A stretch of 64,000 nucleotides of DNA from a bacterium (GTDB lineage Bacteria > SM23-81 > DAOVCL01). A model generated the notes under the pieces. The model did no database searches, was not told the origin of the DNA, and saw only the letters and a program-made list of their open reading frames with translations. The translations under genes and the position numbers were made by a program. The DNA is taken from positions 24,099 through 88,098 of the forward strand of contig JAOZPP010000001.1 of the NCBI GenBank assembly GCA_029932675.1. The letters are read 5' to 3'. Positions within the stretch are counted from its first letter, which is position 1. Every line of letters starts with the position of its first letter. Below, one piece after another: positions 15,920 to 40,403 of the stretch.

Positions 15920-18900
15920 TCATCTAATCAACACCATTTTCCTACTCTTTATCATCTTACCCCTATCACCTATCACCTGTAACCTACAAATGTATACCCC
16001 ACTGGCTACTGGTTTGCCCCAGCTATCCCTTCCATCCCAAAGGACCCGATAGTAACCAGGTTTTTGCTCTTCATCCACCAGCGTCCTCACCAGTCCCCCC
16101 AATACATTATAGACCTTCAAACTAACGTGGATCGTGCTCGTAGCCCCTGCTCGTGAACCCCCAATGGCTGAGGGTTGGTAACGGTCTCCGGGTAACGAGT
16201 AACGAATCACGGTTGTTGGATTAAAAGGATTGGGATAGTTCTGGGCAAGGCCAAATTCCTTAGGAAGATTGGCAGTTAACCCTTGGTTGTCCACCCCCTC
16301 CGGAGGCAAGATGATAAACGAAGAGTCACTTTCATCCATCCCCACATTCCCTGACCTGTCATAGGCCAAAATTCTGACGATACAGCTATCAGAAGTCAGA
16401 CTATCAGTAATCTCCCAGACAAATAAGGAATCAGCTACTACACCTCGAGCTATTGTATCCCCATAGGTCCTCCCTCCATCATAGGAGAGGAAAACACTCA
16501 GACTCTCAATCCCTATATTGTCTTCAGCCTTAAACTTAATGGTATCCCTCTCCCCTACCCTCCACCTCTCCCCCCCATTGGGCACCAAAACCTGAACCTG
16601 GGGAGGGGTTCTATCCACTATGCTGAAAAAACCTTTGGTTTGGCCCTGTCCGCTGTTGTGCAGGAAATCATAAGCTACCACCCTCAACTGGCAGCTATCC
16701 GAAACAATATTGGGAACTTGCCATAGGTATGTGCTGTCACTGCCTTCAACGACTGCTATGGAGTCCCATTCCGTTTCTTCTTGGAATTTATAGAAAATGT
16801 GAAGTGTCAGGATGTCATTCTCATCTGTGGCGCTCCAGAGAATTTGGGTTTGAGCTCCACAGCTTAAAGTCTCGCCAGGCGATGGGGAATAGATGGTAAC
16901 CACAGGGCCTTTTGTGTCCACCAAGGTTGAGCCTTCGGGAGCATCGGTGAAGGCTTCCACATTCCCGGCGCTATCCTGGGCAATGGTCTGAAACCAATAG
17001 TACCCATCTCCGCTATCGGCAGAAAAGTAAAAGGTGCTCCCTGATGCAGCCTCCCCGGAAAGTATCCAGTCTACCTCTTTCCACTTGTACTTGTAGAATA
17101 GCTGTATTTGGTAAATACCACTTGATGGTTGAGAATCCGTGGCTGCAAAGTGAATTTCAAAAAAGGAAGCATTAGAGGAGTCCGGAACCTCTGTCACCCA
17201 GGATGTTGGGTTCACTCGATCCAGGAAGATGCTGTCATTTGCTACAGGGCTTAGATTGTCGGCAACATCCTTAACCTGGGCATATACCCTGCGCCAGCCA
17301 TCACCCAAGGAGGGGGAGAGAACAAACATCAAGGTGTCTTGGAGGGGGATCCACCCAGTAGAATTCATATTAAAGGAGGGATCCTCTGCCAGCCTTACTG
17401 AATTGGGGTAACCACCATAACCAAGGGCAACAACTACGGTATCGCCGTTCGTGTATCGACTGGAGGAAGGGGGGCGGTTGGACAAGCTAATAGAACAAGA
17501 TAGTCGATCAGTTTTCACCACCACCGAATCCTCAGCCAGGAAACTCCTCTCCTCCCAATTTCCCGCTGAATCCTCGGCAATCATCTCAAAGAGATAAAGC
17601 GTATCGCCGGTAGCATTGAAAATAATAGGATTACCAGGGGAGGCACTACCATAAAGATGCCACTCCCCCCCCTTCTTCCTATAATAAAGCTTCACTTGGG
17701 CTACACCGCTTGAAGGAGCTGGGTCGGAGTAGGTATAAGGAATTTGGAAATTGACCTGGTTGATATAATCTGGCAAACCGGAAACCTCAGCCTGTGGTGG
17801 TGCCTTATCTAAAAAAATGCTCTTGCTCAAAATAGAGCTTCTATTACCTGCTGGATCTCTCACTTGAGCAAAAACACTCCGCCATCCCTCGGCACCTGGA
17901 GTTAGAATATACAAGTAGCTTTCGGCTATATCGATCCACCCAGTCGAATTCACGGAAAAACTGGGGTCCTCAGCCAATCTCATCTGGCTCGGTGAACCGG
18001 TATAGAAAAGGGAAAGGGCAAGGGAGTCGCTATTGGTAAACCGGGGTGAACCCGAACTTATGTCCCCCATTATCAGACTCTCCAGCACAGGAGCCGTAGT
18101 ATCTACAACCACGGAATCCTCGGCCTCAAAGATCTGGTTCTCGATGTTGCCCGCCGAATCTTCCGCCACCACCACAAAGAAGTAGGTCCCCTCCCTCCCT
18201 GAATGGAAAGAAAAGCTCCCATCAGGGCTCTCAGTTCCATAACTTACCCAACCCTCACCATTCTTCTTATAGAAAAGCTCCACTTGGGTCACACCACTTG
18301 AAGGATATGGATCGGAATAGGTATAGGGTATCTGAAAAGAGAGGGTATTAATATAATCAGGCAACCCTGAGACCTTGGCCTGCGGTGGAGCCGTATCCAA
18401 GAAGATACTCTCGCAAACCACCTGACTCGTGTACCCTAGAGAATCTCGCAACTGGGTATAAATCTCCCTTAACCCATCCCCAGAAGTGAGCATATAGGAT
18501 AATTCAGGAGTGAGCTCTTGCCAATCTGTGGAATTAATGGAGAAGAGGGCATCCTGTGCCAATCTCATCTCAGTTATGCCCCCTTTATACTCCTCTATCT
18601 TGACCCTCACTGATTCTTCGTTGGAGTATTTGGGAGAACCGGAATCCAGGTCCTCTAAGGTAACTCTTGTTAAGGTTAGCACTGTATAGGAAGGTGACTC
18701 TGGAGAGAGGGGTCCAACATTACCAATAGAATCTACTGCCGCTACCCGCACCTTATAGGTGTGGCCTCGTAAACCCTCTATGGAAGAACAAGTATCCGTC
18801 GCTGTTGCCACCTCTACATACTCCGAACTATCAACTGATTCGTAAATGTTATAGTGATCCACTGGTGATCCTTGAGTAGGAGGTGACCAACAGAAGCCAA

Positions 18901-18991
18901 TAGAGAGGGAATCGGCGAGAAGGGATTTCACCCCCAAAGAAAGGCTAAGGAGGAAGATAACAAAAGGAACCGTGGCTTTTTTTAACTTCAT
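15920..18991 (-). CDS. large secreted cell-surface protein with three tandem ~190-aa repeats, an FN3-like N-terminal domain and a T9SS type-A C-terminal sorting domain
   Basis: Signal peptide MKLKKATVPFVIFLLSLSLG. Repeats begin MRLAQDALFSINSTDW / MRLAEDPSFSVNSTGW / VRLAEDPSFNMNSTGW. C-terminal NYPNPFNPTTVIRYSLP...VSLKVYNVLGGLVRTL...SGVYICRLQV matches the Por secretion tail. Confidence 0.75.
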   Translation of the reverse strand: MKLKKATVPFVIFLLSLSLGVKSLLADSLSIGFCWSPPTQGSPVDHYNIYESVDSSEYVEVATATDTCSSIEGLRGHTYKVRVAAVDSIGNVGPLSPESPSYTVLTLTRVTLEDLDSGSPKYSNEESVRVKIEEYKGGITEMRLAQDALFSINSTDWQELTPELSYMLTSGDGLREIYTQLRDSLGYTSQVVCESIFLDTAPPQAKVSGLPDYINTLSFQIPYTYSDPYPSSGVTQVELFYKKNGEGWVSYGTESPDGSFSFHSGREGTYFFVVVAEDSAGNIENQIFEAEDSVVVDTTAPVLESLIMGDISSGSPRFTNSDSLALSLFYTGSPSQMRLAEDPSFSVNSTGWIDIAESYLYILTPGAEGWRSVFAQVRDPAGNRSSILSKSIFLDKAPPQAEVSGLPDYINQVNFQIPYTYSDPAPSSGVAQVKLYYRKKGGEWHLYGSASPGNPIIFNATGDTLYLFEMIAEDSAGNWEERSFLAEDSVVVKTDRLSCSISLSNRPPSSSRYTNGDTVVVALGYGGYPNSVRLAEDPSFNMNSTGWIPLQDTLMFVLSPSLGDGWRRVYAQVKDVADNLSPVANDSIFLDRVNPTSWVTEVPDSSNASFFEIHFAATDSQPSSGIYQIQLFYKYKWKEVDWILSGEAASGSTFYFSADSGDGYYWFQTIAQDSAGNVEAFTDAPEGSTLVDTKGPVVTIYSPSPGETLSCGAQTQILWSATDENDILTLHIFYKFQEETEWDSIAVVEGSDSTYLWQVPNIVSDSCQLRVVAYDFLHNSGQGQTKGFFSIVDRTPPQVQVLVPNGGERWRVGERDTIKFKAEDNIGIESLSVFLSYDGGRTYGDTIARGVVADSLFVWEITDSLTSDSCIVRILAYDRSGNVGMDESDSSFIILPPEGVDNQGLTANLPKEFGLAQNYPNPFNPTTVIRYSLPGDRYQPSAIGGSRAGATSTIHVSLKVYNVLGGLVRTLVDEEQKPGYYRVLWDGRDSWGKPVASGVYICRLQVIGDRGKMIKSRKMVLIR

Positions 18992-19250: not shown

Positions 19251-20705
19251 TTAATTTCCAATTCTAAATACGCTTGCCACCTCATCCCTATACAAAAAGG
19301 TGGTGGTCTCCTTGAGAAACTGCTCCAACCGTTTTTCATGGCCAAAAACTAAAACATAATCATATTGGGGCAAAAATTCCTTCCAGTCAATAGCTCCTTT
19401 GAACTTATAGTAAAATTCGTCTGGAGCATAGTATGCTTTTCTATATCTCAATGGCTGTTGACCCCTGTAAGCAAACAGATAAGGGGTAATACCCGCTTTT
19501 TCAATTACATAGTAAGCCCAAAAATGCTGGTAAGGATTGATACGGCCCTTTTCCGCGATGCAATTGATGGGTAAAATGACCTTGTAGGGCGGATTTTTCA
19601 TCATCGCCTCATAAGAAGGCTCTAACTCCTTATCAATAGATCTATAATTGACAAATGTCGTGCCGACCTGTAAGAATTGTATAGTTACAACAGCAGGAAG
19701 AAAATATTTGATCATTTTCTCTTCTGGAGGTTTCACTAAAACAAGACCAATAAACATAAGAAATGGCAACATACGAACATCTACGTCCCCTCCTCCATGG
19801 AACCCATAGGGGAGAATCAGATACACTATAAATAGGGATATGAATACCCATAGCCATTTGCTTTTCCTTAAGGGAGAACGATGGAACCAGTCTGAGCTAA
19901 AGCCCATTATCAACACCACGGTGCACATCAGCAAGAAAATATCCTTTAACGGAGAAAAGTTTATATACATTCCTCCTAATGCTAAAAGCTTTTTGTAAAG
20001 TGTGCGGAAATAAATCCGCTGACTCCCCCCACCAGAACTCATATAGAAAATAAATAAAGCCAAGGAGGGAAGAGCTGTCAGAAAAATTTTTATAACCCTT
20101 CGACGATCTTCAAAGATCTTGAATACCACAAACAGGGGGAGAGTAAGCATCATCAAGGTGTAAGAAAACAGATGCGAAAAGTAAAGGACAACCCAGCTCA
20201 TCAAAAGGATAATCCACTTTCTAATCGATGGTTTTCCATAATATCTCAATCCGAGGGATAAACATAAGAAGAATATGGAAATACTTGCATAGTAATTCAA
20301 ATACCCCATATTAAAAAACCAATTATAAGCCCATAATACCGCAATCATAGCATAAGATAGATTTCTGGGTTCCACGGTGGCAACAAAGCAGGCAACAGCC
20401 AATGGTAGCAAAAGCAAATAAAAACTAAGCAGTAATTTACCAGCAAGTAAAGGGGAAACAAAACGGACAAGGGGGACTAAGATGAAATCAGAAATTAAAT
20501 TGGGCAGAGGGTAATAGCTTATAGAGAAATTCCGCTGGTATATGCTCTCGGAACTGTAGTCGGCAATTATCTTCGCTCGGGCTAAATGGTTAGGGTAATC
20601 CTGCAACGGCGGAAACTTCACAGACCACAGAGGAATCAAGTTAGACAGGAGAAGCAGGATAAATACAATAAGAATGTATCTTCTATGTTCAAAAGGTTCT
20701 TCCAT
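19251..20705 (-). CDS. polytopic integral membrane protein of unknown function (possibly polysaccharide-related GT-C-like)
   Basis: About 12 predicted TM helices. No recognised catalytic motif. Confidence 0.5.
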   Translation of the reverse strand: MEEPFEHRRYILIVFILLLLSNLIPLWSVKFPPLQDYPNHLARAKIIADYSSESIYQRNFSISYYPLPNLISDFILVPLVRFVSPLLAGKLLLSFYLLLLPLAVACFVATVEPRNLSYAMIAVLWAYNWFFNMGYLNYYASISIFFLCLSLGLRYYGKPSIRKWIILLMSWVVLYFSHLFSYTLMMLTLPLFVVFKIFEDRRRVIKIFLTALPSLALFIFYMSSGGGSQRIYFRTLYKKLLALGGMYINFSPLKDIFLLMCTVVLIMGFSSDWFHRSPLRKSKWLWVFISLFIVYLILPYGFHGGGDVDVRMLPFLMFIGLVLVKPPEEKMIKYFLPAVVTIQFLQVGTTFVNYRSIDKELEPSYEAMMKNPPYKVILPINCIAEKGRINPYQHFWAYYVIEKAGITPYLFAYRGQQPLRYRKAYYAPDEFYYKFKGAIDWKEFLPQYDYVLVFGHEKRLEQFLKETTTFLYRDEVASVFRIGN

Positions 20706-20896: not shown

Positions 20897-21538
20897 TCAA
20901 TGCGGTAAGGATTCACATATATAGGGGAAAATCTGTTGAATGAACTCCTTTTCTAACTTCAAGGTTGCCTGCGGGTTACCCCCCATAACTGGTGCAGAGA
21001 TCCGAATTAGAGCCCTATCACTTCGCTTGCCTAAAATTCTCTTCATAATTAATTTGATCCTTTGCCTCAGTTCGTCACTGGTCACCTTGTCTCCGGATTG
21101 AAACCAATACAGGACGAGCCGAGTCTGGTCACCTTTGCGAAGGAGGAGTTTATCAACCTTGATTTTTTTTTCGCTTATATTTATCGGTTCCCTTCCTTTC
21201 TCAAGCACCGTCCATCCCAAAGCAGGATAACAGGTGCCCGGGGTATGCTCCAAAAATGATCCGCTTTGTTGCGAATAGTAACCTAAATAGAAGTAAATAC
21301 TTTCGTCCCCCCCGTTAGTATACCTCCTGAAGAAAGTAGTATCTGCCCTCACCGCCGCATAGACATAATCGTCGAACTCAAGCTCTATGCCTTCCCAATC
21401 CCCAAGTCTCTCTGGTAAATTCCCAAAAGAGGAAACCACCTTGGAAGACTCAGCAAAGTAAGTCAGATAGTTAGTATAAAACCCAGTCAGGGCAACAATG
21501 GCAAGTGCTACCCAGTAACTTTTCTGCACTCTATTCAT
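20897..21538 (-). CDS. epsI: exosortase-associated EpsI family protein
   Basis: About 210 aa with an N-terminal TM. Family-like profile. Lies just downstream of the exosortase gene, as in XrtA/EpsH-EpsI pairs. Confidence 0.55.
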   Translation of the reverse strand: MNRVQKSYWVALAIVALTGFYTNYLTYFAESSKVVSSFGNLPERLGDWEGIELEFDDYVYAAVRADTTFFRRYTNGGDESIYFYLGYYSQQSGSFLEHTPGTCYPALGWTVLEKGREPINISEKKIKVDKLLLRKGDQTRLVLYWFQSGDKVTSDELRQRIKLIMKRILGKRSDRALIRISAPVMGGNPQATLKLEKEFIQQIFPYICESLPH

Positions 21539-21745
21539 CCTTTTGCCACAGAAAGTGAAATATTTCAGAGAAAGTTGGACTTTTTAGGGCTTTTAAAATG
21601 TTGTGGTTCCCTAACGCATAACGCAGGATTTTTATTCGGTGACCTTCGGTGCTGAATGAATGTTATTTACCCTGTTCATCCTGTCAATCCTGTCTAAAAA
21701 TGGAAGTTCTCACGATTTAAGGTTCAAAATCTACAAAATCTGCGG

Positions 21746-22582
21746 TCATCTGTGTTCTTCAGTGGCAGTCTTCCCCTTTAAGATAGCCCCAAATATAGCT
21801 AACAAAATCAGGGAAAAGGCAAAGACCGTAATCCCGGAGAATTTATGAAAAAAGCCCTCTGCCATCTCTCTTCCAAAAAGATGTGAAAGAACCCCGGTAA
21901 GGGAGATTCTCGCTATGTTGGCAGCAATGGCTATAGGGATAGTAAAAAGAAATAGAACCGCTCTCTTCCAAAGAATCTTCTGATGAAGATAAGAAAAGAT
22001 GGCGCCAAGAGCCATCAATGAAATCAGAGACCTGAGCCCACTGCAGGCAGTTGCCACTTCCATAGTAAGATTAGGCAGATAGATGACATTCCCCTCCCTA
22101 ACGGCGGAGACACCAAGAGAGGAAAGAATTATCATCGATAATCTGCTGGCAAAAAGTTTAAGGGGAAGGGTGATTTGATTGTAGAGACTATCCGGGAAAG
22201 GGAAGAGGAAAACAAGATATAACCAGGGGAAAAGGAGCTCTGTGGTCATCTCTCTTCCAGTGAGCCAAAGGAGCAGTCCCCCTAAGACCATCAAGAAAGA
22301 GATGTTTGTACCAGTTGAAGACCAGGTTAACGTGCTCAAAATATATAAAAGACAACCGAATATCAACACGGGTAACCCAAACTCCGCTGGATCATTTCCA
22401 ATGGATGATATTCTCCCTCTCTTTCGCCAGACGATAAAAAGGGAAATGGGAAGGATGAGAAAACCATGGGAGTAGTCAGGATCCCAATGCCATCTATCCA
22501 CCAAACTAAAGAACATCGGATGATAGGCAAAGATCACCAAGAGAGAGATTAAAAATATTCTCCAGAATTTCTTTATAGACAT
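21746..22582 (-). CDS. xrt: exosortase (EpsH/Xrt family transpeptidase)
   Basis: N-terminal WHWDPDYSHGFLILPISLF motif. Active-site-like ATACSGLRS (Cys) and ANIARIS (Asn/Arg) motifs. Eight TM segments. Confidence 0.8.
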   Translation of the reverse strand: MSIKKFWRIFLISLLVIFAYHPMFFSLVDRWHWDPDYSHGFLILPISLFIVWRKRGRISSIGNDPAEFGLPVLIFGCLLYILSTLTWSSTGTNISFLMVLGGLLLWLTGREMTTELLFPWLYLVFLFPFPDSLYNQITLPLKLFASRLSMIILSSLGVSAVREGNVIYLPNLTMEVATACSGLRSLISLMALGAIFSYLHQKILWKRAVLFLFTIPIAIAANIARISLTGVLSHLFGREMAEGFFHKFSGITVFAFSLILLAIFGAILKGKTATEEHR

Positions 22583-22651
22583 TTCCTATGGATAGGAAGG
22601 TGTTAGGTTTTAGGAAATAGCTTAGAGAAGACGGGTGATAGGTGTTAGGTG

Positions 22652-23071
22652 TTAAGTGGAGAGGCGATGCTCATCCTTCCATTTGAGCAAGGATTTCTCC
22701 AATGCTCTCAGCATCTTTCCACACTCCTCGTAGGACTTACTCAACCTCTCGTATTGCCCCCTGGTCAAATAATCCTTGCGAAAAGCTATGAACAAGTGAT
22801 GCAGAGTCTCTTGGAGCTCCCCAAGAGAACGATTTATCCCCTCCAAGTAGATATTTATGTGCTTGTTATTCCAGCCCTCAGCTAAATTAGCTGCTATGGA
22901 ATTAGAAGACCTTCTTATCTGCGATCCTAATTCATAAAGCTCAAACTTAGGGAACTTAAGAGAGAACTTGCTAATCTCCAAATGCAGATCACAAAGCCTT
23001 TTGTATACCTCCAAATCCCCAAAGCTCTCTATCTTCTTATTGTCTTTTACCTTAAACCTACCACCTTCCAC
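22652..23071 (-). CDS. four-helix-bundle protein (23S rRNA intervening-sequence protein family, TIGR02436-like)
   Basis: SFGDLEVYKRLCDLHLEISKFSLKFPKFELYELGSQIRRSSNSIAANLAEGW is a typical family signature. Apparent GTG start. Confidence 0.6.
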   Translation of the reverse strand: MEGGRFKVKDNKKIESFGDLEVYKRLCDLHLEISKFSLKFPKFELYELGSQIRRSSNSIAANLAEGWNNKHINIYLEGINRSLGELQETLHHLFIAFRKDYLTRGQYERLSKSYEECGKMLRALEKSLLKWKDEHRLST

Positions 23072-23120
23072 CTTCTACCTTCTACCTTCTACCTATCACC
23101 TCTAACCTATCACTCACCTA

Positions 23121-23867
23121 TCACCTGATTACCACCATCCTTTTCGTCTTTCTCGCCTTTAACCTATCACCTACCACCTCTAACCTATAAAAATATACCC
23201 CACTGCAAACCTCTTCCCCAAAATTGTCCCTTCCATCCCACACGACCCTATAATAACCCGGCTCCTTTTCTCCGTCAATCAGATCTCTCACCTTCTCTCC
23301 CAAGCTATTGTAAACTTTTAAGGTTATGGGTATGAGGTGAGAGGCGTTAGGTTCCCCTTTCACCTTAAACCTTTCACCTATCACCTGGGGGACGGTGTAG
23401 CGGATGGTGGTGGACGAATTGAACGGATTGGGGAAATTTTGACTTAGTGAAAATCTTTTAGGCAATTCTTTCCCTTGAGTCTCATCAACACCCGATAAGG
23501 TAGTATCAGGAGAGGCTTCAGACAATGGCCCCTCCACTCCATCTGAGTCCACAGCAGAGACTTTAACCCAATAGGTATGCCCGGCTGAGCCGACAATAGA
23601 AGATATAGTATCATAAGCAATCTTTACGAACTTATAGCTCGTATCATTGTTTACATCTACCGCCCTATAGACCTTATAATGGTCAACAGGAGCCCCAGTT
23701 TTCGGAGGCGACCAGTGAAAAACAAGTGCATTTTCCTGCCCCAACGCAGAGGTGTTCCCAGGAGACAAAACAGAGTAGAGAACCACGATAGTCAGTAGAA
23801 AAAATGGCAACATCCGCAATTTTTGGGTCAATTTCCCCTCTCTCAAAAGTATAGCAGGAACAGGCAT
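23121..23867 (-). CDS. secreted FN3-like domain protein with T9SS type-A C-terminal sorting domain (paralog of the N- and C-termini of 15920..18991)
   Basis: FHWSPPKTGAPVDHYKVYRAVD matches CWSPPTQGSPVDHYNIYESVD in the larger protein. C-terminal NFPNPFNSSTTIRYTVP...ITLKVYNSLGEKVRDL...SGVYFYRLEV. Start is ambiguous (ATG at 23867, 23813 or 23933). Confidence 0.7.
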   Translation of the reverse strand: MPVPAILLREGKLTQKLRMLPFFLLTIVVLYSVLSPGNTSALGQENALVFHWSPPKTGAPVDHYKVYRAVDVNNDTSYKFVKIAYDTISSIVGSAGHTYWVKVSAVDSDGVEGPLSEASPDTTLSGVDETQGKELPKRFSLSQNFPNPFNSSTTIRYTVPQVIGERFKVKGEPNASHLIPITLKVYNSLGEKVRDLIDGEKEPGYYRVVWDGRDNFGEEVCSGVYFYRLEVVGDRLKARKTKRMVVIR

Positions 23868-23942
23868 TAGGTTCGTGGACTGTTCCTTCCCTAACGCTTG
23901 GATATTACTCGTCTTACGGACTCTTCTCCTCATAGTACACCT

Positions 23943-25625
23943 CTATCGCCATTGGGGTTGACCTGGTTGACCGATGGGCCACAAGGTATCACACATAACC
24001 CTAACTTCTTGACCCTTCTTTGGTAGGTCCGTAGCTCGTATAATTACAGGATAAGCGTTTGAGGTAGGAAAGGTATAATCAAGATAGTATTCCTTTGCTC
24101 TCTTGCTATCTTCTGTAATGGAAGGATGAACAGCAACCGTATCCCCATCCCCAAAGTCAACTTTCATTACAATGGTAGCGCTATCAACCCCTATACCTTT
24201 GTCCCGAATAGCAAAATGAATATGGGGTAGATTTCCATCCGATGTCCAGCTCGTGTCCGCAATATAAGGCGGGTTTGTGTCATCCCAACCGTCGTAAGGG
24301 AGTGCCCCTATATCTCCCCCATCATCAGCAGCCCTGATGCAGGGTGAACCCTCACGCAAGCGGTAGTCATCACTGGCAGGGTCAACAAACATAGGATCAG
24401 CTTTCATCCCATGGATTTCACACCCTTTAGATGTTCTAATACCGCTTAAAGTATAATTTGTATAATGGTTCCATTGCTGGATATATTCCGAGGCATCATA
24501 ATAACAATTATAATCGACATAATAGGAATCAGGTTGACTGGCGTCTGGATTTTCCGTCCACATCTCTAACCCCCTATACCCCCCATATATGTAGCATATA
24601 TTATTTTTGACGGTGACACCGTTAGCGCCACCTGGGGGGTTAGATGGACTCTCCTCGGGGATGCTAATACTCGCCTGAGTCATATTCACCACAGTATTAT
24701 GTTCTACCTTGGAATAATCACCACCAGTAACATCTCCCAAATCAAAACCAATCTGGATTCCATAAGATTCGCTCCCTCGTCCATCGTAAATCAAATTGTT
24801 TTTAACTATTGTCGAGTCATAACGAGCGTGGATACCTATTATTATATCGTGAATTTTATTGTTTAAACAATAGAAATGCCCTGGTTCTCCTGGTTCTTTA
24901 TATTTTATCCCAACATTCATATCGTAAAATTCGCAATTTTCAATTCGGATTTCCCTTGTCCTCCGAGGTGTAGGATCGTGAGAACTGCTTCCATATATTG
25001 TTATGCCCGTATTGTTCATTTTAACTGGCTCAAAAGCCAATGTATCCTCTCGGTTATGAAATATGGTGCAATTTTTTATCGTTATCGAATCGGAAAATTG
25101 GATAAAAAAAGCTCCAACATTGTCGTCCCCTTGAGTGCTGCAGATAACACAATTTTTAAACTCTAATTTTTTACATTCCCAGATGAAGATTGCCTGTCCT
25201 CCCCAGTCGTTGGTTTTAGTGACATCACCACTGTTAACTATGTTTACAGAGTCCACAGTGATATAATTTCTTGCACTATCGGGCTGGTGATCCTTGCCGA
25301 ACCGCCAGACATGATGGATACTATGCTGAGCATCTATCCATACATCGGCTCCTGGGTATGCTTTATAGACTATCCTATTAGAGTATGTACCCGAATTTGC
25401 TGGAATAATGTTACTCTCATAGTATCTTCCCTCCATAATCAGCACTGTATCCCCAGCCTGCAGAGTCTGAGCGGCGTGGTTTATCGTGGCCCAGGCGTTG
25501 GCCGTGTCCAGTCCAGAGTTGGCATCGTTGCCAGTCTTGGATACATAATAAGTTGTGGAGCTTACCTCACCCCACGAGAAGAAAACTGCTAACATTACAA
25601 TACCGAAAACCGGGAATTTCTTCAT
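23943..25625 (-). CDS. secreted right-handed parallel beta-helix repeat protein (pectate-lyase fold; probable polysaccharide lyase/hydrolase)
   Basis: Signal peptide MKKFPVFGIVMLAVFFSWG. Multiple PbH1-type repeats (ITIKNCTIFHN, IRIENCEFYDMNVGI, VVNMTQASISI). Confidence 0.65.
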   Translation of the reverse strand: MKKFPVFGIVMLAVFFSWGEVSSTTYYVSKTGNDANSGLDTANAWATINHAAQTLQAGDTVLIMEGRYYESNIIPANSGTYSNRIVYKAYPGADVWIDAQHSIHHVWRFGKDHQPDSARNYITVDSVNIVNSGDVTKTNDWGGQAIFIWECKKLEFKNCVICSTQGDDNVGAFFIQFSDSITIKNCTIFHNREDTLAFEPVKMNNTGITIYGSSSHDPTPRRTREIRIENCEFYDMNVGIKYKEPGEPGHFYCLNNKIHDIIIGIHARYDSTIVKNNLIYDGRGSESYGIQIGFDLGDVTGGDYSKVEHNTVVNMTQASISIPEESPSNPPGGANGVTVKNNICYIYGGYRGLEMWTENPDASQPDSYYVDYNCYYDASEYIQQWNHYTNYTLSGIRTSKGCEIHGMKADPMFVDPASDDYRLREGSPCIRAADDGGDIGALPYDGWDDTNPPYIADTSWTSDGNLPHIHFAIRDKGIGVDSATIVMKVDFGDGDTVAVHPSITEDSKRAKEYYLDYTFPTSNAYPVIIRATDLPKKGQEVRVMCDTLWPIGQPGQPQWR

Positions 25626-25743
25626 TGATGCTCCCTCCCAGATTTTTTGACTCACCCACTGAAAGTTAAGCTTCTGATTCTAAAATATTTATGCAATTCT
25701 TGTGCCAAGCGACAGAAAACGATTTTAAGGACTTAACTGATAG

Positions 25744-25866
25744 TACGGCAAAAAGTCCAATTAAAAGCTATAACTGGTTAAGCCTCAAAATGTAACCCAT
25801 TTATTTTCAATGCGATGCATTTTGCATCTGTAGTGCCCTAGAGCAAATTTTGACTTTTTGCCGTAC
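25744..25866. repeat. 123-bp palindromic element: perfect 15-bp terminal inverted repeats GTACGGCAAAAAGTC with an inner GATGCAtttTGCATC palindrome
   Basis: Arms at ~25744-25758 and ~25852-25866, with the inner palindrome at ~25814-25828. Lies at the GC-content transition. Confidence 0.6.
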
Positions 25867-26025: not shown

Positions 26026-27369
26026 TTAAGAAATAAGAGATACAAAGTTTCTCAATTTGCCCGATTTTTCTCTTGGAATCAGGTTAACAAATTCATAGTC
26101 AATATTCATAGATTCACCAAAATATTGGTGAATTTTTATATCCAAATATTCAATGGTTTGCTTTGAGAAATTACTATCTTTGACTATTTCCATTTTTATT
26201 TTATTGACGGTTTCTTGATAAATCTTAAATTGCCGAATTCCCCCATCTCTATTGATTAAATCTTTTATAATGTAATCAAAAATATAGCTATGGAGATGCT
26301 TTCCATCTGGGGTAATTACTACATCGTCTGTCCTACCCACTATCTTTTCAATAAGGGGCAAACCTCTTCCGCATTTACAAATTTTACTTGAAGCCGTACC
26401 CATATCACCAATATCATATCTGATGATGGGAAAGGAGTAGTTGTTTAAATCCGTTACAATTATTTTCTTGAGATTGGCATCATTTTTTAAGTCAGTTTCC
26501 AGAAACTCGGTATAGGTACAGTCGGCCATAAGATGATGACCACCTGATGGACATTGGAAAGCTATTAGACCTGTCTCTGCGGCCCCATATTCGCTCACAA
26601 GCTGACATCCGAAAACTGACTCAATTAAATCTCTTTGAAACTCACTAATAGTCTCTGAAGTACATTTAACCATTTTGAAATTTAGAATCTTACCATTTAA
26701 AGCATTTTCTTTTATAAAAAGGGCAAATTGATAAACCATAGAGGTATAACCCGTAAGGTATTCTGGTTTTTTTCTCAACATCATTTGATAAAAGCGATTT
26801 AAAGTTTCAGGATATAAATTATATTCTTTCTCTCTAAATCTGTTAAGAAGTAAGTCCTTTGCCTTTGTTTTTAGCCTTTCCTTCCAATTTACAGGAACAC
26901 CCCACAACATAGCTTCTTTTGCACCGATATCCAAGCCATACCACCTATGCCCTCTATACATAGCGGCATTGGCATATCCTGTAGCTCTCCTATCTTTGTA
27001 AAATTCTAGAGGTATACCAGTAGAACCAGAGGTTTCAGCTAAGGTAAGAGGCTTACTATGGTTAACCGCCAACATATTTTGCACATTCTTCCTTAAAGTT
27101 TCCTTAGTTAAAATAGGAATCTTAGCGAAATCCTCTGGATTACTTATATCATTCGGATATATGTTATGTTTTTTAAACAAGTTGTGATAATAGCGCACAT
27201 TTTCATAGGCATGTTCCATTAACTTCAATAACTTTCTCCATTGCAATTCCCTAATCTCATCTGGGGAGAGCCATTGATTTTCTTCAAGTTCCTTTAAATA
27301 TCTAAATAAAGGCTCTCTGCGCAGCTTCTCAATTATGTAGAATGTAGTCTTTGCTATTTTTTGATTCAT
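26026..27369 (-). CDS. phenylacetate-CoA ligase family adenylate-forming enzyme (CapK-like, capsule biosynthesis)
   Basis: SGSTGIPLEFYKDRRATGYANAAMYRGHRWYGLDIGAKEAMLWG is an AMP-binding motif of the PaaK/F390-synthetase family. Start at ATG 27367-27369 (MNQKIAK). Confidence 0.65.
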   Translation of the reverse strand: MNQKIAKTTFYIIEKLRREPLFRYLKELEENQWLSPDEIRELQWRKLLKLMEHAYENVRYYHNLFKKHNIYPNDISNPEDFAKIPILTKETLRKNVQNMLAVNHSKPLTLAETSGSTGIPLEFYKDRRATGYANAAMYRGHRWYGLDIGAKEAMLWGVPVNWKERLKTKAKDLLLNRFREKEYNLYPETLNRFYQMMLRKKPEYLTGYTSMVYQFALFIKENALNGKILNFKMVKCTSETISEFQRDLIESVFGCQLVSEYGAAETGLIAFQCPSGGHHLMADCTYTEFLETDLKNDANLKKIIVTDLNNYSFPIIRYDIGDMGTASSKICKCGRGLPLIEKIVGRTDDVVITPDGKHLHSYIFDYIIKDLINRDGGIRQFKIYQETVNKIKMEIVKDSNFSKQTIEYLDIKIHQYFGESMNIDYEFVNLIPREKSGKLRNFVSLIS

Positions 27370-27426
27370 TGTCTCTGATGCCGTCTCTGATTCCAGCTTC
27401 TTCGCAATAGGCGGCATATAATTTAG

Positions 27427-28410
27427 TCAAGAAGATATGGTTAAACGGAGTAACAGTTTTTTGAAGTCTGCTTCCCACATTTTTTGCTTTATGGTTTTGA
27501 TATATGCAATTTCTTTACATATAGTTTTCTTCTTTTTAAGTACTGTATTTATTGATCTCGCTATGTCTGATGGAGTATTCGCTGTAAAAACTGCGCCAGA
27601 ATTAAAATAGTCCCTTAAAGCTTTCTTATCAGAAAGTATCAAAGATTTCTCAACAGCAAGTGCTTCATACATTCCACAAACCAGGCAATCTTCAGATTTT
27701 GTCAAATCCATAATCAAATCAACAGAATGAAGCATTTGAATGTATTTCTCCTCTGGAAGATAACCAGTAAAGATTACATTTGTGGGTATTTTTTCAGGAA
27801 GTTTTTGCAAGTATCTCCTGTAATTTCCAGTGATGTAAATAAATATATTTTTATCAAGTCTTTTGGCCGCACCAATTACCTCTTCTATGGGTTCATCCTC
27901 ACCAAAAGACGAGATATAAAGGATATTGTATCTCCCCTTCAGTCTAATAGGTTCGATCTTAGGAAAATGAGGTATCGGGTCCGGTAAAACAAATCCCTTG
28001 CCACTGTATTTTTCAATCTCGTTTTTGAGATTACTATTCGTTACGATGGTCAAATCGGTGTTACGAATTATGTATTTAGTTAAATTAGTCAACAAAGGTT
28101 CTCTTGAATTCAAATGGTCGATAACTGAATTATGGGCATCGACGACTGCTTTAGCTCTAGTGATTTTTTTATATATTACTGCAAGTAAAGCAAGGACGAT
28201 TGAAGGATTTTCAACAAATAAAGTCCTTGGCCTTTTTATAATAAGCAGGTATACCGTTCTAAAAATGAGAACTGGATATCTAAGGCAACGAGGACCCTTG
28301 AGATCAAATTCATACAATTTAATATTTAACCTTTCACTCAGCGAAATATTTCTGCGTTGGTGTTCCCAGGTCACCCAAATTGTTTTATCTTTCGCTTTAA
28401 AAGTTCCCAT
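27427..28410 (-). CDS. glycosyltransferase (GT1 fold, GT4-like)
   Basis: Rossmann-like two-domain pattern, with C-terminal DCLVCGMYEALAVEKSLIL. Confidence 0.5.
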   Translation of the reverse strand: MGTFKAKDKTIWVTWEHQRRNISLSERLNIKLYEFDLKGPRCLRYPVLIFRTVYLLIIKRPRTLFVENPSIVLALLAVIYKKITRAKAVVDAHNSVIDHLNSREPLLTNLTKYIIRNTDLTIVTNSNLKNEIEKYSGKGFVLPDPIPHFPKIEPIRLKGRYNILYISSFGEDEPIEEVIGAAKRLDKNIFIYITGNYRRYLQKLPEKIPTNVIFTGYLPEEKYIQMLHSVDLIMDLTKSEDCLVCGMYEALAVEKSLILSDKKALRDYFNSGAVFTANTPSDIARSINTVLKKKKTICKEIAYIKTIKQKMWEADFKKLLLRLTISS

Positions 28411-28451
28411 CTATTCATCTCTCTATTGTGTGTATTTACCCTCACCAATCC

Positions 28452-28685
28452 TTAAAACCAAGGGTTCTTTAACCTGGCAATTTGAGTAAGCAATAACAAC
28501 AACTCCTTGGCCACTTTATATCTTCCCAATTTGTTAAGATGACAACCGTCATTGGCAATTCGAATAAATTCTTGGTCGTGATCAACTTTAGGTGGTTTAA
28601 ACATCGACTCCCCCCGCTTGCAAGCTACTAAGGCTGCTGCAAGTAAAGATAACATGATAAGAAAGTCTTTTAGAAATCTATGCAT
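28452..28685 (-). CDS. small predicted lipoprotein (hypothetical)
   Basis: MHRFLKDFLIMLSLLAAALVAC has a positively charged n-region, hydrophobic core and LVAC lipobox. No homolog recognised. Confidence 0.3.
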   Translation of the reverse strand: MHRFLKDFLIMLSLLAAALVACKRGESMFKPPKVDHDQEFIRIANDGCHLNKLGRYKVAKELLLLLTQIARLKNPWF

Positions 28686-28744
28686 TTCTCCACATTACTG
28701 TACCATACCATTCTGATACCTACGGCAGGATTTATTCGCTTTCC

Positions 28745-29578
28745 TCAAGGCAACAAAAGATGAGGGCATCTGCAAATAAGCTGATTTAGATGATCAGGTG
28801 TAAGAAAAAAGTAGTTAACAGACTTGTTACCAATTAAATGTTCTCTTAGCTTGTATCCATCAAACCAGTAGGATTTGTACCCAACCTCATAGAGAATGTG
28901 TAAAAGCTCCCAGGCTGTTGAACCTTCCTTATCTGGATCCGAAGAAAGCTCGATGAGCCAAGCAGGCTTAAATCTTGTAATAATTTCTGAAGCGCCCTTG
29001 ATAACCGCCAATTCATGACCCTCCACATCACACTTAATGAACGAGACCCCCTTTTTGAAACTTGTAATCAAACTATCAAGAGATTTGAGCTTCACAGTAA
29101 AATTCCTGGAGGTGCTATCTCGTTTCTTTCCATTTACAAGCCTAGCCTGATAGAAATTAGACCCACCAAAATCATATTTAGGTACCTCCATCTTACCTAA
29201 ACCTTCTTTGTCCGAGATCGCATAATTAAAGAGCTCAACATTGGGTAGAGAAAGCCTCTTGACACACCAAGATAATATTGTGAATGTTTCTGGAACTGGC
29301 TCTATACTGATAACATGTCCCGAACTGGAAACTAAATCTGAAAGCACCGTAGTATACCAACCAACATTGGCTCCAATATCAATAACGGTTTCGCCCTTAC
29401 CTACAATATATCTAAGGATTTTTAAGTCAGGTTCGTTCCTATTCCCAAATTTCTTAAGTGAGTTAAGATAGTGTAACCTTTTTAGCCAGATTATTGCTCT
29501 ATTTGGCAATATACTCAGAAAAATCCCCTTAAGTTTTCGCTCGATTGGCATGTCTTTCACGAATCTAATTTGACTCAT
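28745..29578 (-). CDS. FkbM family methyltransferase
   Basis: VIDIGANVGWYTTVLSDLV...ISIEPVPETF is a FkbM signature. Confidence 0.75.
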   Translation of the reverse strand: MSQIRFVKDMPIERKLKGIFLSILPNRAIIWLKRLHYLNSLKKFGNRNEPDLKILRYIVGKGETVIDIGANVGWYTTVLSDLVSSSGHVISIEPVPETFTILSWCVKRLSLPNVELFNYAISDKEGLGKMEVPKYDFGGSNFYQARLVNGKKRDSTSRNFTVKLKSLDSLITSFKKGVSFIKCDVEGHELAVIKGASEIITRFKPAWLIELSSDPDKEGSTAWELLHILYEVGYKSYWFDGYKLREHLIGNKSVNYFFLTPDHLNQLICRCPHLLLP

Positions 29579-29586
29579 CTATAGGC

Positions 29587-30738
29587 TCAAATTGTATTAT
29601 GCTTAACTAAAAGTTCGCTATAAACCTCTTCATATTTTTGGGTCATAACTTCTGCCGAAAATTCATTTAACACTAATTGGTAACCTCTATCAGCCAATTC
29701 ACAAGATTTTTTCTCATCACCAAGAAGTTCAAGAGTAGAATTAGTCAAAGCATCTACATCTTTGGGTTCCAATAAAATACCAGTTCTTCCGTTCTGAACA
29801 ATTTTTGAAACGGCTCCTACATTAGTAGCAATTACCGGAACTTTTGCCGCTAATGCTTCAAGAACAACCATCGGTAATCCTTCATCAAGAGAAGTGGAAA
29901 CAAAGAGATCTATTGTATTATATATTTCATTGATGTCGCTCCTTACTCCAGTGAAAATCACTTTGCTCGCAATACCCAAATTTTCAGTTAACCTTTCTAA
30001 ATCTTTCCTCAATATCCCATCCCCCACTATCAAAAAGATAACATCGTTTCTAATAGCTAATACACGCTTAGCAGCCTGAAGTAGATATTTATATCCTTTC
30101 TGCTCAGTTAGACGCCCCACAGTTCCCACTATTTTGCATCTTTTTTCATCTATCTGAAATTCCTTTATAAGTTTTCGTGATTTCCTATCGTTTGAGGTGA
30201 ATTTCCCTGTATCAACTCCATTATAGATAGTCCGTATTTTCACATCCGAAACCCCTCTATCTAACAAATCCTGATGAATGGCATCTGACACCGCTATTAT
30301 CTTATCGAAAAACTTGAGAGTAAGAGAATCTATTGCTCTATAAAAGGCCATTTTGCCGCTTTTGTTTGGCCACAGGTGGTCAGTAGAAATCAATTTGAGT
30401 TTTAAACCCACAGATGCGAGTAATCCTATGAGATTTGCTTTATAATCATGGCAGTGTAATATTTTAATCTTGTTGGTCTTTATGATCTCTCGAACTGCCT
30501 TAACACAGGTTAAGTCATACGGAGACCTCAAATCAATCCTGAAATTAGTGATATTCAAGTTCTCCGCGTAGTCCAACATCTCTACTCTTTCATCCCTTGG
30601 ATCTTTGAAGCAAAGGACTATAGGTTTAAACTTTCGTGGGCTGGCAAACTTTGTCAAAGCTAAAATTACATTTTCAGCCCCAAATAATCCACCACTACTT
30701 CTCAAATGCATTATATTAACCATATAGATCTTAGACAA
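29587..30738 (-). CDS. glycosyltransferase family 4
   Basis: EGLPMVVLEALAAKVPVIATNVGAV is a GT4 C-terminal motif. Confidence 0.8.
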   Translation of the reverse strand: MSKIYMVNIMHLRSSGGLFGAENVILALTKFASPRKFKPIVLCFKDPRDERVEMLDYAENLNITNFRIDLRSPYDLTCVKAVREIIKTNKIKILHCHDYKANLIGLLASVGLKLKLISTDHLWPNKSGKMAFYRAIDSLTLKFFDKIIAVSDAIHQDLLDRGVSDVKIRTIYNGVDTGKFTSNDRKSRKLIKEFQIDEKRCKIVGTVGRLTEQKGYKYLLQAAKRVLAIRNDVIFLIVGDGILRKDLERLTENLGIASKVIFTGVRSDINEIYNTIDLFVSTSLDEGLPMVVLEALAAKVPVIATNVGAVSKIVQNGRTGILLEPKDVDALTNSTLELLGDEKKSCELADRGYQLVLNEFSAEVMTQKYEEVYSELLVKHNTI

Positions 30739-30750
30739 TCTATGTTGCAG

Positions 30751-31893: not shown

Positions 31894-31972
31894 ACTTTGA
31901 CCTCCTATATCTCATTCTCATTAGACAGGATTTACCGGATGATCAGGATAATAGAAAATCAATTTAGTAATA

Positions 31973-33208: not shown

Positions 33209-33236
33209 ATCGAAAGTTCCAATACCATTAACTCAT

Positions 33237-36878: not shown

Positions 36879-37005
36879 AGGTCAAGACGGAAAGAATCAC
36901 CTTTCCCTTTCCAGCTCCCTCCGTAAATTTGCCAGCTCGATGAAAGAGCTAAATTTAGCACCATTACTTCAATGATCTCATTAACGCTCCTCAAAGTATC
37001 TATAT

Positions 37006-39112: not shown

Positions 39113-39196
39113 ATTCCTTAACCTCCAAGAAACTAATATCGTTATTCGTTACTTAATCACGCTTACAAAAAAGGTCTGTTCCCCCCTCTCCTCTAT

Positions 39197-40361: not shown

Positions 40362-40403
40362 CCGTTTACCTCCGTGAATTGAGGGAAAAGGCCAAAGGAG
40401 TTT

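Follow-up and report, generated by a model that had tools for sequence, protein, structure and literature searches.

What does an exosortase sort when its gene is surrounded by genes for surface proteins with T9SS-type tails? This question is raised by a 64,000-nucleotide stretch of bacterial DNA (the window), in which the exosortase gene xrt and its partner epsI are flanked by two genes for secreted proteins with T9SS-type C-terminal domains (CTDs), one 0.5 kb upstream and the other 1.9 kb downstream. To our knowledge, exosortases still lack biochemical characterisation, as regards both the molecule that accepts their clients and the route of export. For comparison, 163 related exosortase loci were used for the recurrence of neighbouring genes and about 165 for the PEP-CTERM and CTD scans, with at most 20 kb seen per genome.

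The exosortase, EpsI and the polysaccharide locus

20897..21538, (-): epsI, exosortase-associated protein, 213 aa, with an N-terminal TM anchor
21596..21697, (-): interspersed repeat copy, a triple heptad (GACAGGAT-NN, three times) with a conserved tail
21746..22582, (-): xrt, XrtA-like exosortase, 278 aa

An earlier note on this DNA had claimed a clear exosortase with three motifs and an EpsI-like partner, and both assignments hold. The motifs WDPDYSHG, ACSGLRS and NIARIS can all be read from the xrt product, which scores 215 bits against TIGR02602 (cutoff 105.6) and 245 bits against PF09721 (cutoff 25.7), while residues C180, R225 and H246 are invariant in an alignment of 27 sequences. EpsI scores 124 against TIGR02914 (cutoff 42.8) and 148 bits against PF11984. 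Its gene adjoins xrt, as expected of an XrtA system and as observed in 136 of the 163 related loci. The two genes are separated by an unusual spacer of 207 nt, which is occupied by the repeat copy; the reading frames of xrt and epsI overlap in the related loci L047, L049 and L090, unlike in the window. RNA folding of the repeat was not significant (z = 0.38), and Rfam and tRNA scans of the window returned no matches.

The subtype, which the note had left to be classified, is near-standard XrtA, although the enzyme itself narrowly misses the model, with 200.0 bits against the TIGR03109 cutoff of 208, a shortfall of 8 bits. Its clade straddles this cutoff, with P0003 (220.6) and P0026 (215.6) above and P0120 (204.7) and P0006 (193.7) below. 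The nearest exosortase is 50% identical, and the proteins checked from the locus are each the sole member, or one of two, of their 90%-identity cluster. A scan of species representatives reached at most 44% identity. For RibBA, the best matches are 88-90% identical, and those at about 74-77% identity carry mixed labels ('candidate division…', 'Calditri…', 'Firm…', 'Bact…'). Both halves of the fused exosortase-EpsI proteins XrtD (VPLPA-CTERM) and XrtW also align, with 207–222 bits to xrt and 112 and 78 to EpsI; however, the window has separate genes, the scores reach about half of the cutoffs (400 and 425), and a VPLPA-CTERM-type tail is absent.

The pair is located inside a ~40-kb XrtA-type exopolysaccharide (EPS) locus, spanning about 15.9–56.3 kb of the window.

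26026..33208, (-): low-GC, variable glycan-tailoring block (CapK-like adenylating enzyme, GT1/GT4, FkbM methyltransferase, GT4, GT2, DegT aminotransferase)
34243..35274, (-): FemAB-family XrtA/PEP-CTERM system-associated protein (VimA-like)
35469..41843, (-): O-antigen-ligase-like protein (TIGR03097-like), flippase-like protein, two GT4 (stp2-like), Wzx flippase
43879..49524, (-): CE4 deacetylase, FemAB-like GNAT (Acetyltransf_6), ATP-grasp ligase, methyltransferase, ACP-like ORF (48366-48626), XrtA-system deacetylase
48685-49524, (-): the XrtA-system polysaccharide deacetylase of this block
50498..56305, (-): export and chain-length module (BY-kinase, TPR, STAS-HTH, Wzz-like PCP, Wza-like OPX; TIGR01007 140 against 108)

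Two XrtA-system markers exceed their equivalog cutoffs, namely the FemAB protein (TIGR03019, 349.6 against 260.35) and the deacetylase (TIGR03006, 375.7 against 276.2). The locus further encodes two O-antigen-ligase-like proteins, Wzx and many glycosyltransferases. Four other XrtA-specific models are each the best or near-best match for their protein, yet stay below cutoff: TIGR03027 for export (118 against 180), TIGR03007 for chain length (187 against 279), TIGR03018 for the tyrosine kinase (118 against 231) and TIGR03097 for the O-ligase (156 against 188). The XrtA amidotransferase model TIGR03108 had no match in any ORF of the locus. The Wza, Wzz, BY-kinase and TPR genes are present, and the previously proposed XrtA-like EPS locus is supported.

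Related loci point in the same direction. Besides EpsI, the recurrent neighbours among the 163 are an NtrC-like regulator within 10 kb of xrt (46 loci), Wza (41), BY-kinase (36), CE4 (24) and FemAB (18). The closest loci, L090, L091 and L175, have the canonical gene order of XrtA systems: Wzy_C, amidotransferase (773 against 817), glycosyltransferases, FemAB (378), xrt, epsI, a glycosyltransferase and a sigma-54 regulator. There xrt adjoins the FemAB gene, whereas the two are 11.7 kb apart in the window.

T9SS-tailed proteins and other inserted genes

15920..18991, (-): secreted multi-Ig/fn3 protein, 1023 aa, with a paralogous T9SS-type CTD (fn3, Big_13, Big_7 and FlgD_ig matches; PorU CTD region match)
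19251..20705, (-): polytopic membrane protein, 484 aa, about 8 TM segments, without a Pfam or NCBIfam match
22652..23071, (-): four-helix-bundle protein (23S rRNA IVP/Avd-like), 139 aa (TIGR02436 87 against 24; PF05635 93 bits)
23121..23933, (-): small secreted protein with fn3 and a T9SS-type CTD, 270-aa ORF
23943..25655, (-): secreted right-handed beta-helix protein (Pel9A-like beta-helix and PelN N-terminal matches)

The gene for the 1023-aa protein forms the left end of the locus. Both tails are divergent and remain below the cutoffs of the T9SS type-A models, with 16 against 23 for TIGR04183 and 16.6 and 16.9 against 27 for PF18962, which aligns over about its first half only (profile positions 2-35 and 2-38 of 75). 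In contrast, FlgD_ig exceeds its cutoff of 27 on both CTDs (31.6 and 32.3), and CHU_C does so on one (28.3 against 27). For the 1023-aa protein, a CTD HMM scores 123-129 bits. Each tail is a terminal beta-sandwich of about 80-100 aa with PNPF, GxY and C-terminal Lys motifs, akin to known CTDs. Since the fold search with the whole CTD protein was dominated by the fn3 domain, a search with the CTD alone was used for its identity. Homology and fold thus support the tails as T9SS-type CTDs, and the claim of two T9SS-tailed secreted neighbours stands. T9SS core genes (porK/L/M/N, sprA/sov, porU, porV) were not found by the NCBIfam scan among window ORFs of at least 150 aa; from the CTDs by themselves, we infer that the host genome carries T9SS machinery.

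Translation of the small CTD protein probably begins at a Met inside the ORF, ahead of a signal peptide, and the beta-helix gene likely starts at the ATG at 25625, after the RBS GGGAGGGAG. These two genes form a module comparable to a large-protein/fn3-CTD pair in L088. The CTD proteins, the beta-helix protein and the 484-aa protein are absent from all 163 related loci, and their genes are therefore regarded as lineage-specific insertions; the four-helix-bundle gene occurs in only 3 of the 163. The 484-aa protein belongs to a large family, with 5038 cluster representatives at E <= 0.001. A conserved linkage between fn3-CTD genes and exosortases was rejected, as the proteins most similar to the small CTD protein do not have exosortases as neighbours. 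With none in 163 loci, the CTD genes are not supported as conserved exosortase partners.

Interleaving of an exosortase with any T9SS-tailed gene was seen, besides the window, in only 3 of about 165 related loci, all three FCB-type. In L047 (Zixibacteria), epsI and a Por_Secre_tail-positive gene form an overlapping operon, sharing 23 nt at the end of epsI, and in L049 (Ignavibacteriales) a CTD gene lies convergent at 77 bp from epsI. Outside the window, CTD genes occur in 3 of 12 FCB-type loci, about one per 60 kb, and they are absent from the closest exosortase loci. This adjacency in a few Zixibacteria and Ignavibacteriales loci is suggestive, without statistical support. The earlier view of the interleaving as unusual is correct as regards its rarity. 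Other aspects are not supported as unusual: the CTD genes recur in none of the 163 loci, a missing PEP-CTERM gene is common near exosortases, and an exosortase-family enzyme, XrtF, is known to coexist with T9SS in one genome in Flavobacterium johnsoniae (PMC10936215). The XrtF system of this member of the Bacteroidota resembles the present case in pairing an exosortase-family enzyme with a small partner in a T9SS-bearing organism, in its surface/biofilm role and in its clients, which have not been identified. It differs in subfamily, no XrtF model being among the 22 families matched by the window's exosortase, and is not tied to an XrtA-type FemAB/CE4 EPS locus.

Putative sigma-54 promoters and the two-component operon

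25692..25707, (-): sigma-54 -24/-12 promoter-like element TGGCACAAGAATTGCA, 11 of 12 consensus positions, upstream of the string beta-helix > fn3-CTD > four-helix-bundle > xrt
25814..25828, (-): palindrome GATGCAAAATGCATC, candidate enhancer (UAS), 119 nt upstream of the -24 element
56661..56676, (-): sigma-54 -24/-12 promoter-like element TGGCACAGATTTTGCT, 11 of 12 consensus positions, upstream of wza
57106..61810, (+): divergent operon with GAF-HK, REC-HK and an NtrC-family sigma-54 activator (PrsR-like)

The window has only two sigma-54-like sites, each of them between genes and in the right orientation; shuffled sequences gave a mean of 0.21 and reached two sites in 2% of cases. The sequence TGCAAAATGC is common to both upstream regions, at 119 nt from the promoter of the xrt string and 122 nt from that of wza (56789-56798), where the element is also preceded by TTTGCA repeats. 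The palindrome GATGCAAAATGCATC may thus serve as UAS. ACAGGAT arrays were also considered as an enhancer and ruled out, as none lies near either promoter. From the beta-helix gene to xrt, the gaps are 9, 49 and 69 nt, and xrt appears to be co-transcribed with the beta-helix and small CTD genes from a putative promoter resembling that of wza. Between 15.5 and 26.5 kb, sigma-70 promoters and terminators were no more frequent than in shuffled sequence, and sigma-54 promoters upstream of xrt were not enriched in relatives (5 on the same strand against 3 on the opposite strand). The promoter, UAS and operon assignments are predictions from sequence, and sigma-54 control of the locus is probable; RpoN-dependent control of PEP-CTERM/EPS systems is documented (PMC9850573).

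The GAF-HK, REC-HK and NtrC-like genes, which the earlier note had likened to PrsK/PrsR, are present, but the specific assignment fails. PrsR (TIGR02915) scores 429 against 502.6, with AtoC and NtrC models scoring similarly, and PrsK (TIGR02916) scores 118 against 300 in an alignment confined to profile positions 323-679, indicating that the kinases lack the PrsK membrane domain. The model for the TPR lipoprotein PrsT (TIGR02917) reaches 61 against 312, so that no member of the PrsK/PrsR/PrsT set passes its cutoff.

Taken against the XrtA/PEP-CTERM system (EpsH; Haft et al. 2006; TIGR03109, TIGR02914, TIGR03019, TIGR03006), the window shares an 8-TM exosortase with the Cys/Arg/His residues and EpsI directly downstream, a Wzx/Wzy-type EPS locus with FemAB-like, CE4, GT4 'stp'-like, O-ligase-like, Wza, Wzz and BY-kinase proteins, and an NtrC-family activator with predicted sigma-54 promoters. 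It differs in the exosortase score just under the XrtA cutoff, in the absence of TIGR03108, PrsK, PrsT and a PEP-CTERM gene from the window, in the lineage-specific genes, including T9SS-tailed ones, between xrt and the FemAB gene, and in a host that probably belongs to none of the phyla for which the system was defined.

Clients of the exosortase and competing explanations

The reported absence of a PEP-CTERM tail from the window's ORFs was borne out. Among six-frame ORFs of at least 30 aa, the best local HMM score was 6.2 bits (E = 11), from a spurious antisense ORF. Alignment of 149 ORF tails to TIGR02595, in which the positive control scored 27.8 against 16, gave histidine-kinase tails as the matches listed. 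A motif-free scan of the window for a C-terminal TM helix with a basic tail returned just the exosortase itself and polytopic membrane proteins, and the same scan of the FCB-type and closest loci likewise returned just exosortases and polytopic proteins. A PEP-CTERM gene lies within 10 kb in only 37 of about 165 related loci (about 22%), so its absence near xrt is normal; according to Haft 2006 (PMC1569441), over 65% of PEP-CTERM genes apparently form operons of a single gene.

We favour, with a probability of roughly 0.58, the reading that xrt and epsI are the sorting module of an XrtA-type EPS locus in an uncultured, probably FCB-like, T9SS-bearing bacterium, that the CTD genes are lineage-specific insertions, and that the clients are encoded elsewhere in the genome. 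The NtrC-like activator would fire both sigma-54 promoters, so that polysaccharide export would be switched on along with the genes running from the beta-helix protein to xrt; the xrt transcript probably runs on to epsI and the genes of the 484-aa and 1023-aa proteins. The exosortase would then cleave clients with a PEP-CTERM-type tail (motif, TM helix, basic cluster) and transfer them to a polysaccharide-linked acceptor; the deacetylase and the FemAB-like enzyme may supply this acceptor in the form of an aminoacylated amino sugar. The CTD and beta-helix proteins are unlikely substrates, because their ends are a beta-strand CTD and not a TM helix with a basic tail; they may exit via T9SS or by other means and have their function on or within that same matrix.

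It is conceivable, though unlikely, that exosortases of FCB-type lineages have no clients or different ones, using an undescribed signal, as proposed for XrtF, or serving, with EpsI, only in polysaccharide assembly or attachment. No PEP-CTERM client was found in the window, in 12 Zixibacteria, Ignavibacteria and other FCB-type loci (185 kb) or in L090, L091 and L175, against matches in 26 of 80 genome loci, all 26 from other phyla; moreover, in Zixibacteria xrt and epsI form an isolated pair among conserved housekeeping genes, with no EPS genes around them. Yet each genome was covered over at most 20 kb and PEP-CTERM genes tend to be scattered, the motif-free search suggested no alternative signal, the score is nearly at XrtA level, and the accessory markers are present. 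That the pair is a decaying, non-functional remnant cut off by insertions is very improbable: the distance between xrt and the FemAB gene, the repeat that opened the xrt/epsI gap and the score slightly below cutoff would fit, but both ORFs are full length, every invariant residue of the family is preserved, Cys180, Arg225 and His246 among them, the score of EpsI is three times as high as the cutoff, and the promoter is plausible and the gene spacing tight.

The CTD genes would be members of the system rather than passengers if the glycan coupled both sorting systems, with the FemAB-like and CE4 enzymes making a VimA/VimE-like linking sugar and PorU attaching the locus-encoded T9SS cargo to the polymer. 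In Porphyromonas gingivalis, where attachment uses the PorU sortase and the Wbp/Vim linking sugar, VimA matches TIGR03019 and VimE is a CE4 deacetylase, and Veith et al. drew the parallel with exosortase loci (PMC7468200). The window has CTD cargo and such an enzyme pair, which could build an aminoacylated sugar acceptor, both enzymes being above cutoff, and the apparent co-transcription of xrt with a CTD gene from a putative sigma-54 promoter and the arrangements in L047 and L049 are consistent with coupling. We nevertheless consider it rather improbable. Outside the window, which was chosen for this feature, adjacency does not exceed chance, CTD genes being abundant in FCB-type genomes; the proteins most similar to the small CTD protein are encoded away from exosortases, and the closest exosortase loci have no CTD genes. 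PorU, PorV, PorZ and Wbp genes are not visible in the window, whose enzymes score as XrtA-system members. Improbable, too, is the broader proposal that an FCB-type XrtA-like exosortase/EpsI pair has lost its connection with PEP-CTERM clients and become part of the T9SS surface-protein pathway, either with cargo anchored to a polysaccharide bearing the FemAB/CE4 linking sugar or with an unrecognised client class, of which the putative sigma-54 operon of the window and the xrt-epsI-CTD arrangement of L047 would be instances.

Taken together, the findings describe an ordinary EPS locus of the XrtA-like kind, into which lineage-specific genes for surface proteins have been inserted, and no new sorting mechanism. 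The locus adds a divergent case to the XrtA type, from an uncultured and rare lineage, and its value is mainly that of a pointer, since it places FemAB/CE4 enzymes, T9SS-tailed proteins and an exosortase under seemingly shared sigma-54 promoters. Such a layout suits a test of the proposal by Veith et al. that proteins become attached to an aminoacylated sugar in exosortase systems as well as in T9SS.

Exosortase, EpsI and the surrounding EPS locus

The 278-aa ORF at 21746-22582 carries the motifs WDPDYSHG, ACSGLRS and NIARIS and scores 245 bits against PF09721 and 215 against the exosortase subfamily model TIGR02602 (cutoff 105.6). The 213-aa ORF at 20897-21538 matches the EpsI models TIGR02914 (124 vs 42.8) and PF11984 (148 bits), so the exosortase (xrt) and EpsI pair described in the earlier note is borne out. 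Aligning it with 26 homologues shows no variation at C180, R225 and H246, so the exosortase looks catalytically intact.

The genes of the 15.9-56.3 kb stretch are all encoded on the minus strand, except a DUF1670 pair (42065-43709, plus strand). NCBIfam annotation of every large ORF identified a Wzx/Wzy-type EPS locus, bounded on the left by the rib operon (11.8-14.7 kb) and on the right by a divergent two-component operon (57.1-61.8 kb). The FemAB-family protein and the polysaccharide deacetylase pass the XrtA-system equivalogs TIGR03019 (349.6 vs 260.35) and TIGR03006 (375.7 vs 276.2), respectively, which supports the proposed XrtA-like EPS locus. For the O-ligase-like protein, Wza, Wzz, the BY-kinase and the GT4s, XrtA-specific models were best or near-best, yet all scores are below cutoff. 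The exosortase subtype is likewise near XrtA, although its own score of 200.0 is under the cutoff of 208; members of its clade fall on both sides of this value (220.6, 215.6, 204.7 and 193.7). Its closest homologues (46% identity, loci L090, L091 and L175) are found in the order Wzy_C, Asn-synthase-type amidotransferase (773 vs 817), GTs, FemAB (378), xrt, epsI, GT and sigma-54 response regulator, a textbook XrtA synteny. Based on the markers, clade scores and synteny of the closest loci, the window exosortase is a fringe XrtA and no separate exosortase class. The two-component operon had been likened to PrsK/PrsR, but its proteins belong to neither family by score: the kinase reached 118 vs 300, with only the cytoplasmic half of the PrsK model aligned, and the regulator 429 vs 502.6 with PrsR, while the AtoC and NtrC models score equally high.

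Several further genes were observed in or near the locus. An acyl/aminoacyl decoration set (44965-48626 and 26026-27417, minus strand) comprises an ACP-like ORF (48366-48626) hidden beneath a mechanically longer methyltransferase ORF, an ATP-grasp ligase, a second FemAB-like GNAT (Acetyltransf_6, 117 bits) and a CapK/PaaK-like adenylating enzyme, which hints that the polymer contains a sugar modified with an amino acid or an acyl group. With its roughly 8 TM segments, the 484-aa protein at 19251-20705 (minus) matches neither Pfam nor NCBIfam, and its relatives, mostly full length at 470-530 aa, number 5038 cluster representatives at E <= 0.001 and 1831 at <= 1e-10. It belongs to a large membrane-protein family without a model and is possibly a polymerase or GT-C-type enzyme. 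In the export module, the TPR and Wzz genes flank a gene for a 379-aa protein (52578-53717, minus) that is missing from related loci; it has a STAS (anti-sigma antagonist) domain at its N-terminus as well as HTH regions of the HTH_21, HTH_32 and transposase types. The ORF at 62080-63807 (plus) joins IspH (residues 1-280; TIGR00216 272 vs 188) with a UbiA-type prenyltransferase-like membrane domain (~337-540), and such a fusion of the last MEP-pathway enzyme to a prenyltransferase is unusual. Left of the rib operon, a second glycan set (1055-9990, minus) contains a GT2, a CDP-alcohol phosphatidyltransferase-like protein, an RfaE-type heptose kinase, a heptosyltransferase, a flippase-like protein, a second TIGR03097-like O-ligase-type protein (119 vs 188) and an 822-aa TMEM260-like protein O-mannosyltransferase fused to TPR repeats.

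T9SS-type C-terminal domains and the search for sorting tails

The two T9SS-tailed proteins of the earlier note, of 270 aa (23121-23933, within the exosortase region of interest at 20897-23933) and 1023 aa (15920-18991), both begin with an fn3 domain, and their C-terminal domains (CTDs), of about 110 aa, are paralogous. Both CTDs stay below the cutoffs of the curated type-A model TIGR04183 (16 vs 23) and of PF18962 (16.6 and 16.9 vs 27), the latter aligning only over the first half of the model and ending where both have a loop insertion. FlgD_ig passes its cutoff on both CTDs and CHU_C on one; PF18962 is present in homologues that are 40-66% identical over the CTD, and LSQNFPNPFN, SGxYFYRL and a Lys-rich terminal strand are conserved. 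Despite type-A scores below cutoff, we accept both domains as divergent T9SS-type CTDs. No T9SS core genes were found among the large window ORFs by NCBIfam annotation.

As a side observation, both CTDs (23124-23468 and 15923-16264, minus) have a common loop insertion of ~17-20 aa after the first strand and a further insertion, 'VVGDRLK' or 'VIGDRGK', before the last. Both insertions are missing from most homologues and kept in the closest one, P0130.

The CTD proteins are predicted not to be exosortase-type substrates because they end in a beta-strand instead of a TM helix with a basic cluster. A motif-free scan of the window for a C-terminal hydrophobic helix with a basic tail returned nothing beyond the exosortase and polytopic membrane proteins. 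An HMM built locally from 27 genuine PEP-CTERM tails of related loci, which scores at least 15 bits in 26 such loci, gave a top score of 6.2 bits (E = 11) over all six-frame window ORFs of at least 30 aa, and this match is a spurious antisense ORF of 50 aa. As a positive control for TIGR02595, a control tail scored 27.8 vs 16. PEP-CTERM is thus absent from the window, as first noticed. Since PEP-CTERM genes lie inside the sampled flanks of only 37 of ~165 loci, and more than 65% of them are apparent single-gene operons (Haft et al., PMC1569441), their lack in a 64-kb window is unremarkable.

Related loci, sigma-54 elements and repeats

The sample with this exosortase type consisted of 80 loci from species-representative genomes, 80 metagenome loci and a few exact look-ups. 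When all window locus proteins were compared by tblastn with 163 loci within 10 kb of xrt, EpsI recurred in 136, the NtrC-like regulator in 46, Wza in 41, BY-kinase in 36, GT4 and GT2 in 26-31, CE4 deacetylase in 24, FemAB in 18 and Wzz in 16. The 1023-aa CTD protein, the beta-helix protein, the 484-aa membrane protein, the DUF1670 pair, the TPR protein and the STAS protein recurred in none, and the fn3-CTD protein in one, matched by its CTD alone. FemAB and xrt are adjacent in the closest relatives. This low or zero recurrence argues that the T9SS-tailed genes are lineage-specific insertions, placed between FemAB and xrt and downstream of epsI.

Within the flanks of this exosortase type, CTD-type proteins are confined to the window and three FCB-type loci, namely L047 and L068 from Zixibacteria and L049 from Ignavibacteriales, and in no locus do they accompany a PEP-CTERM protein. 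In L047 (Zixibacteria MAG contig CALCCW010000001.1), xrt, epsI and a CTD gene form a tight operon (5994-8288), where the start of the CTD gene, encoding a 286-aa secreted protein (Por_Secre_tail 34.8 vs 27), overlaps the epsI end by 23 nt. In L049 the CTD gene is convergent with epsI, 77 bp apart. The window was picked for this adjacency and is left out of any test of it; because L049 spans just 2 kb and such genomes are rich in CTD genes (~one per 60 kb of the FCB-type sample), adjacency in the remaining loci is not beyond chance. No exosortases lie beside the closest homologues of the window fn3-CTD protein. We regard the adjacency as a lead, not a result.

A strict sigma-54 scan of the whole window (GG and GC fixed, at least 11/12 consensus positions) gave two sites, both intergenic and each pointing into the minus-strand gene string, against a mean of 0.21 in shuffled controls, of which 2% reached two. 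These sites and two of the nearby genes are:

56661-56676, minus strand: sigma-54 promoter-like element TGGCACAGATTTTGCT, upstream of wza, facing the NtrC-like operon
25692-25707, minus strand: sigma-54 promoter-like element TGGCACAAGAATTGCA, 67 nt upstream of the probable ATG of the beta-helix gene
23943-25655, minus strand: beta-helix gene, probable ATG at 25625, after GGGAGGGAG
22652-23071, minus strand: four-helix-bundle protein, 139 aa (PF05635), between xrt and the next gene upstream

Upstream of both promoters, at 119 or 122 nt, lies TGCAAAATGC, which at 25.8 kb is within the palindrome GATGCAAAATGCATC and at 56.8 kb is preceded by two more TTTGCA repeats. Successive genes from the beta-helix gene through xrt are separated by 9, 49 and 69 nt. 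The simplest reading would be a single sigma-54 transcript of the beta-helix, fn3-CTD, four-helix-bundle and xrt genes, which the neighbouring NtrC-family activator may co-regulate with the export genes. Relatives show no enrichment of sigma-54 promoters upstream of xrt; within this region, sigma-54 co-regulation is probable. A third sigma-54-like site (10/12; 63965-63980) lies just downstream of the IspH-UbiA-type fusion gene.

An interspersed repeat was also observed, a triple heptad GACAGGAT-NN-ACAGGAT-NN-ACnGGAT of period 9 whose tail (...CATTCATTnAnCACCGAAGGnnACnGAA) is conserved. Many copies form inverted pairs separated by 30-200 nt. Its 13 window matches (0.41 expected) lie at six intergenic sites within 21.6-39.2 kb (21596-21697, 31925-31949, 33236-33302, 33393-33482, 34061-34127, 34214-34229 and 39187-39225), except for a weak 2-mismatch match inside the 484-aa gene (20645-20660). 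One copy fills the xrt-epsI gap, where the RNA fold is not significant, and none is near the window sigma-54 promoters. Exact copies occur, often right beside xrt, in 11 other loci of 37-57% GC (chance ~0.02): L087 (2713-2871), L148 (six sites), L104, L109, L129, L132, L147, L164, L165, L167 and L066. The repeat may represent either a MITE/REP-like element or an array bound by a regulator. Between the genes for the DegT aminotransferase and FemAB, direct repeats carrying the heptad array (33236-33302 and 34061-34127; 67 nt, 87% identical) flank an inserted toxin-antitoxin-like pair (33486-34045, minus), which consists of a DUF4258 protein (70.5 bits) and a zinc-finger protein of YgiT/MqsA type. 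The two tandem DUF1670 proteins have HTH motifs, and their block (51% GC vs ~40% in the surrounding locus) is probably an inserted element because it has no counterpart in 163 related loci. An 84-nt inverted repeat (47916-47999 and 49860-49943, 86% complementary) encloses the methyltransferase, ACP-like and XrtA-system deacetylase genes, its right arm lying within ~1 kb without a plausible ORF (49525-50497) between deacetylase and BY-kinase.

Explanations for the neighbouring systems

The best supported explanation, at a probability of roughly 0.58, is an XrtA-type system whose client genes would lie elsewhere in the genome and whose matrix locus has gained, and is expressed together with, genes for T9SS cargo and a beta-helix enzyme. 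FCB-type clade members may instead have lost their PEP-CTERM clients or use a different signal. Neither a PEP-CTERM match nor an alternative tripartite tail was found in 12 FCB-type loci (185 kb) or in the closest loci, which favors this alternative; we nevertheless consider it rather improbable. Less probable still is attachment of T9SS cargo to a Vim-like aminoacylated sugar that the FemAB and CE4 enzymes would produce, a parallel between the T9SS attachment sugar and exosortase loci that was drawn from the other side by Veith et al. 2020 (PMC7468200). That the exosortase pair is a decaying remnant appears very unlikely.

The observation that opened this analysis is confirmed and its interpretation upheld in part: the setting is a locus of XrtA type, whereas the PrsK/PrsR assignment and the notion of an unusual coexistence are not retained: an exosortase-family system and a T9SS in one genome are already known from F. 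johnsoniae (PMC10936215). Overall, the region adds a new, divergent representative, from a rare uncultured lineage, to the known XrtA-type exosortase/EPS systems and carries lineage-specific T9SS-tailed insertions.
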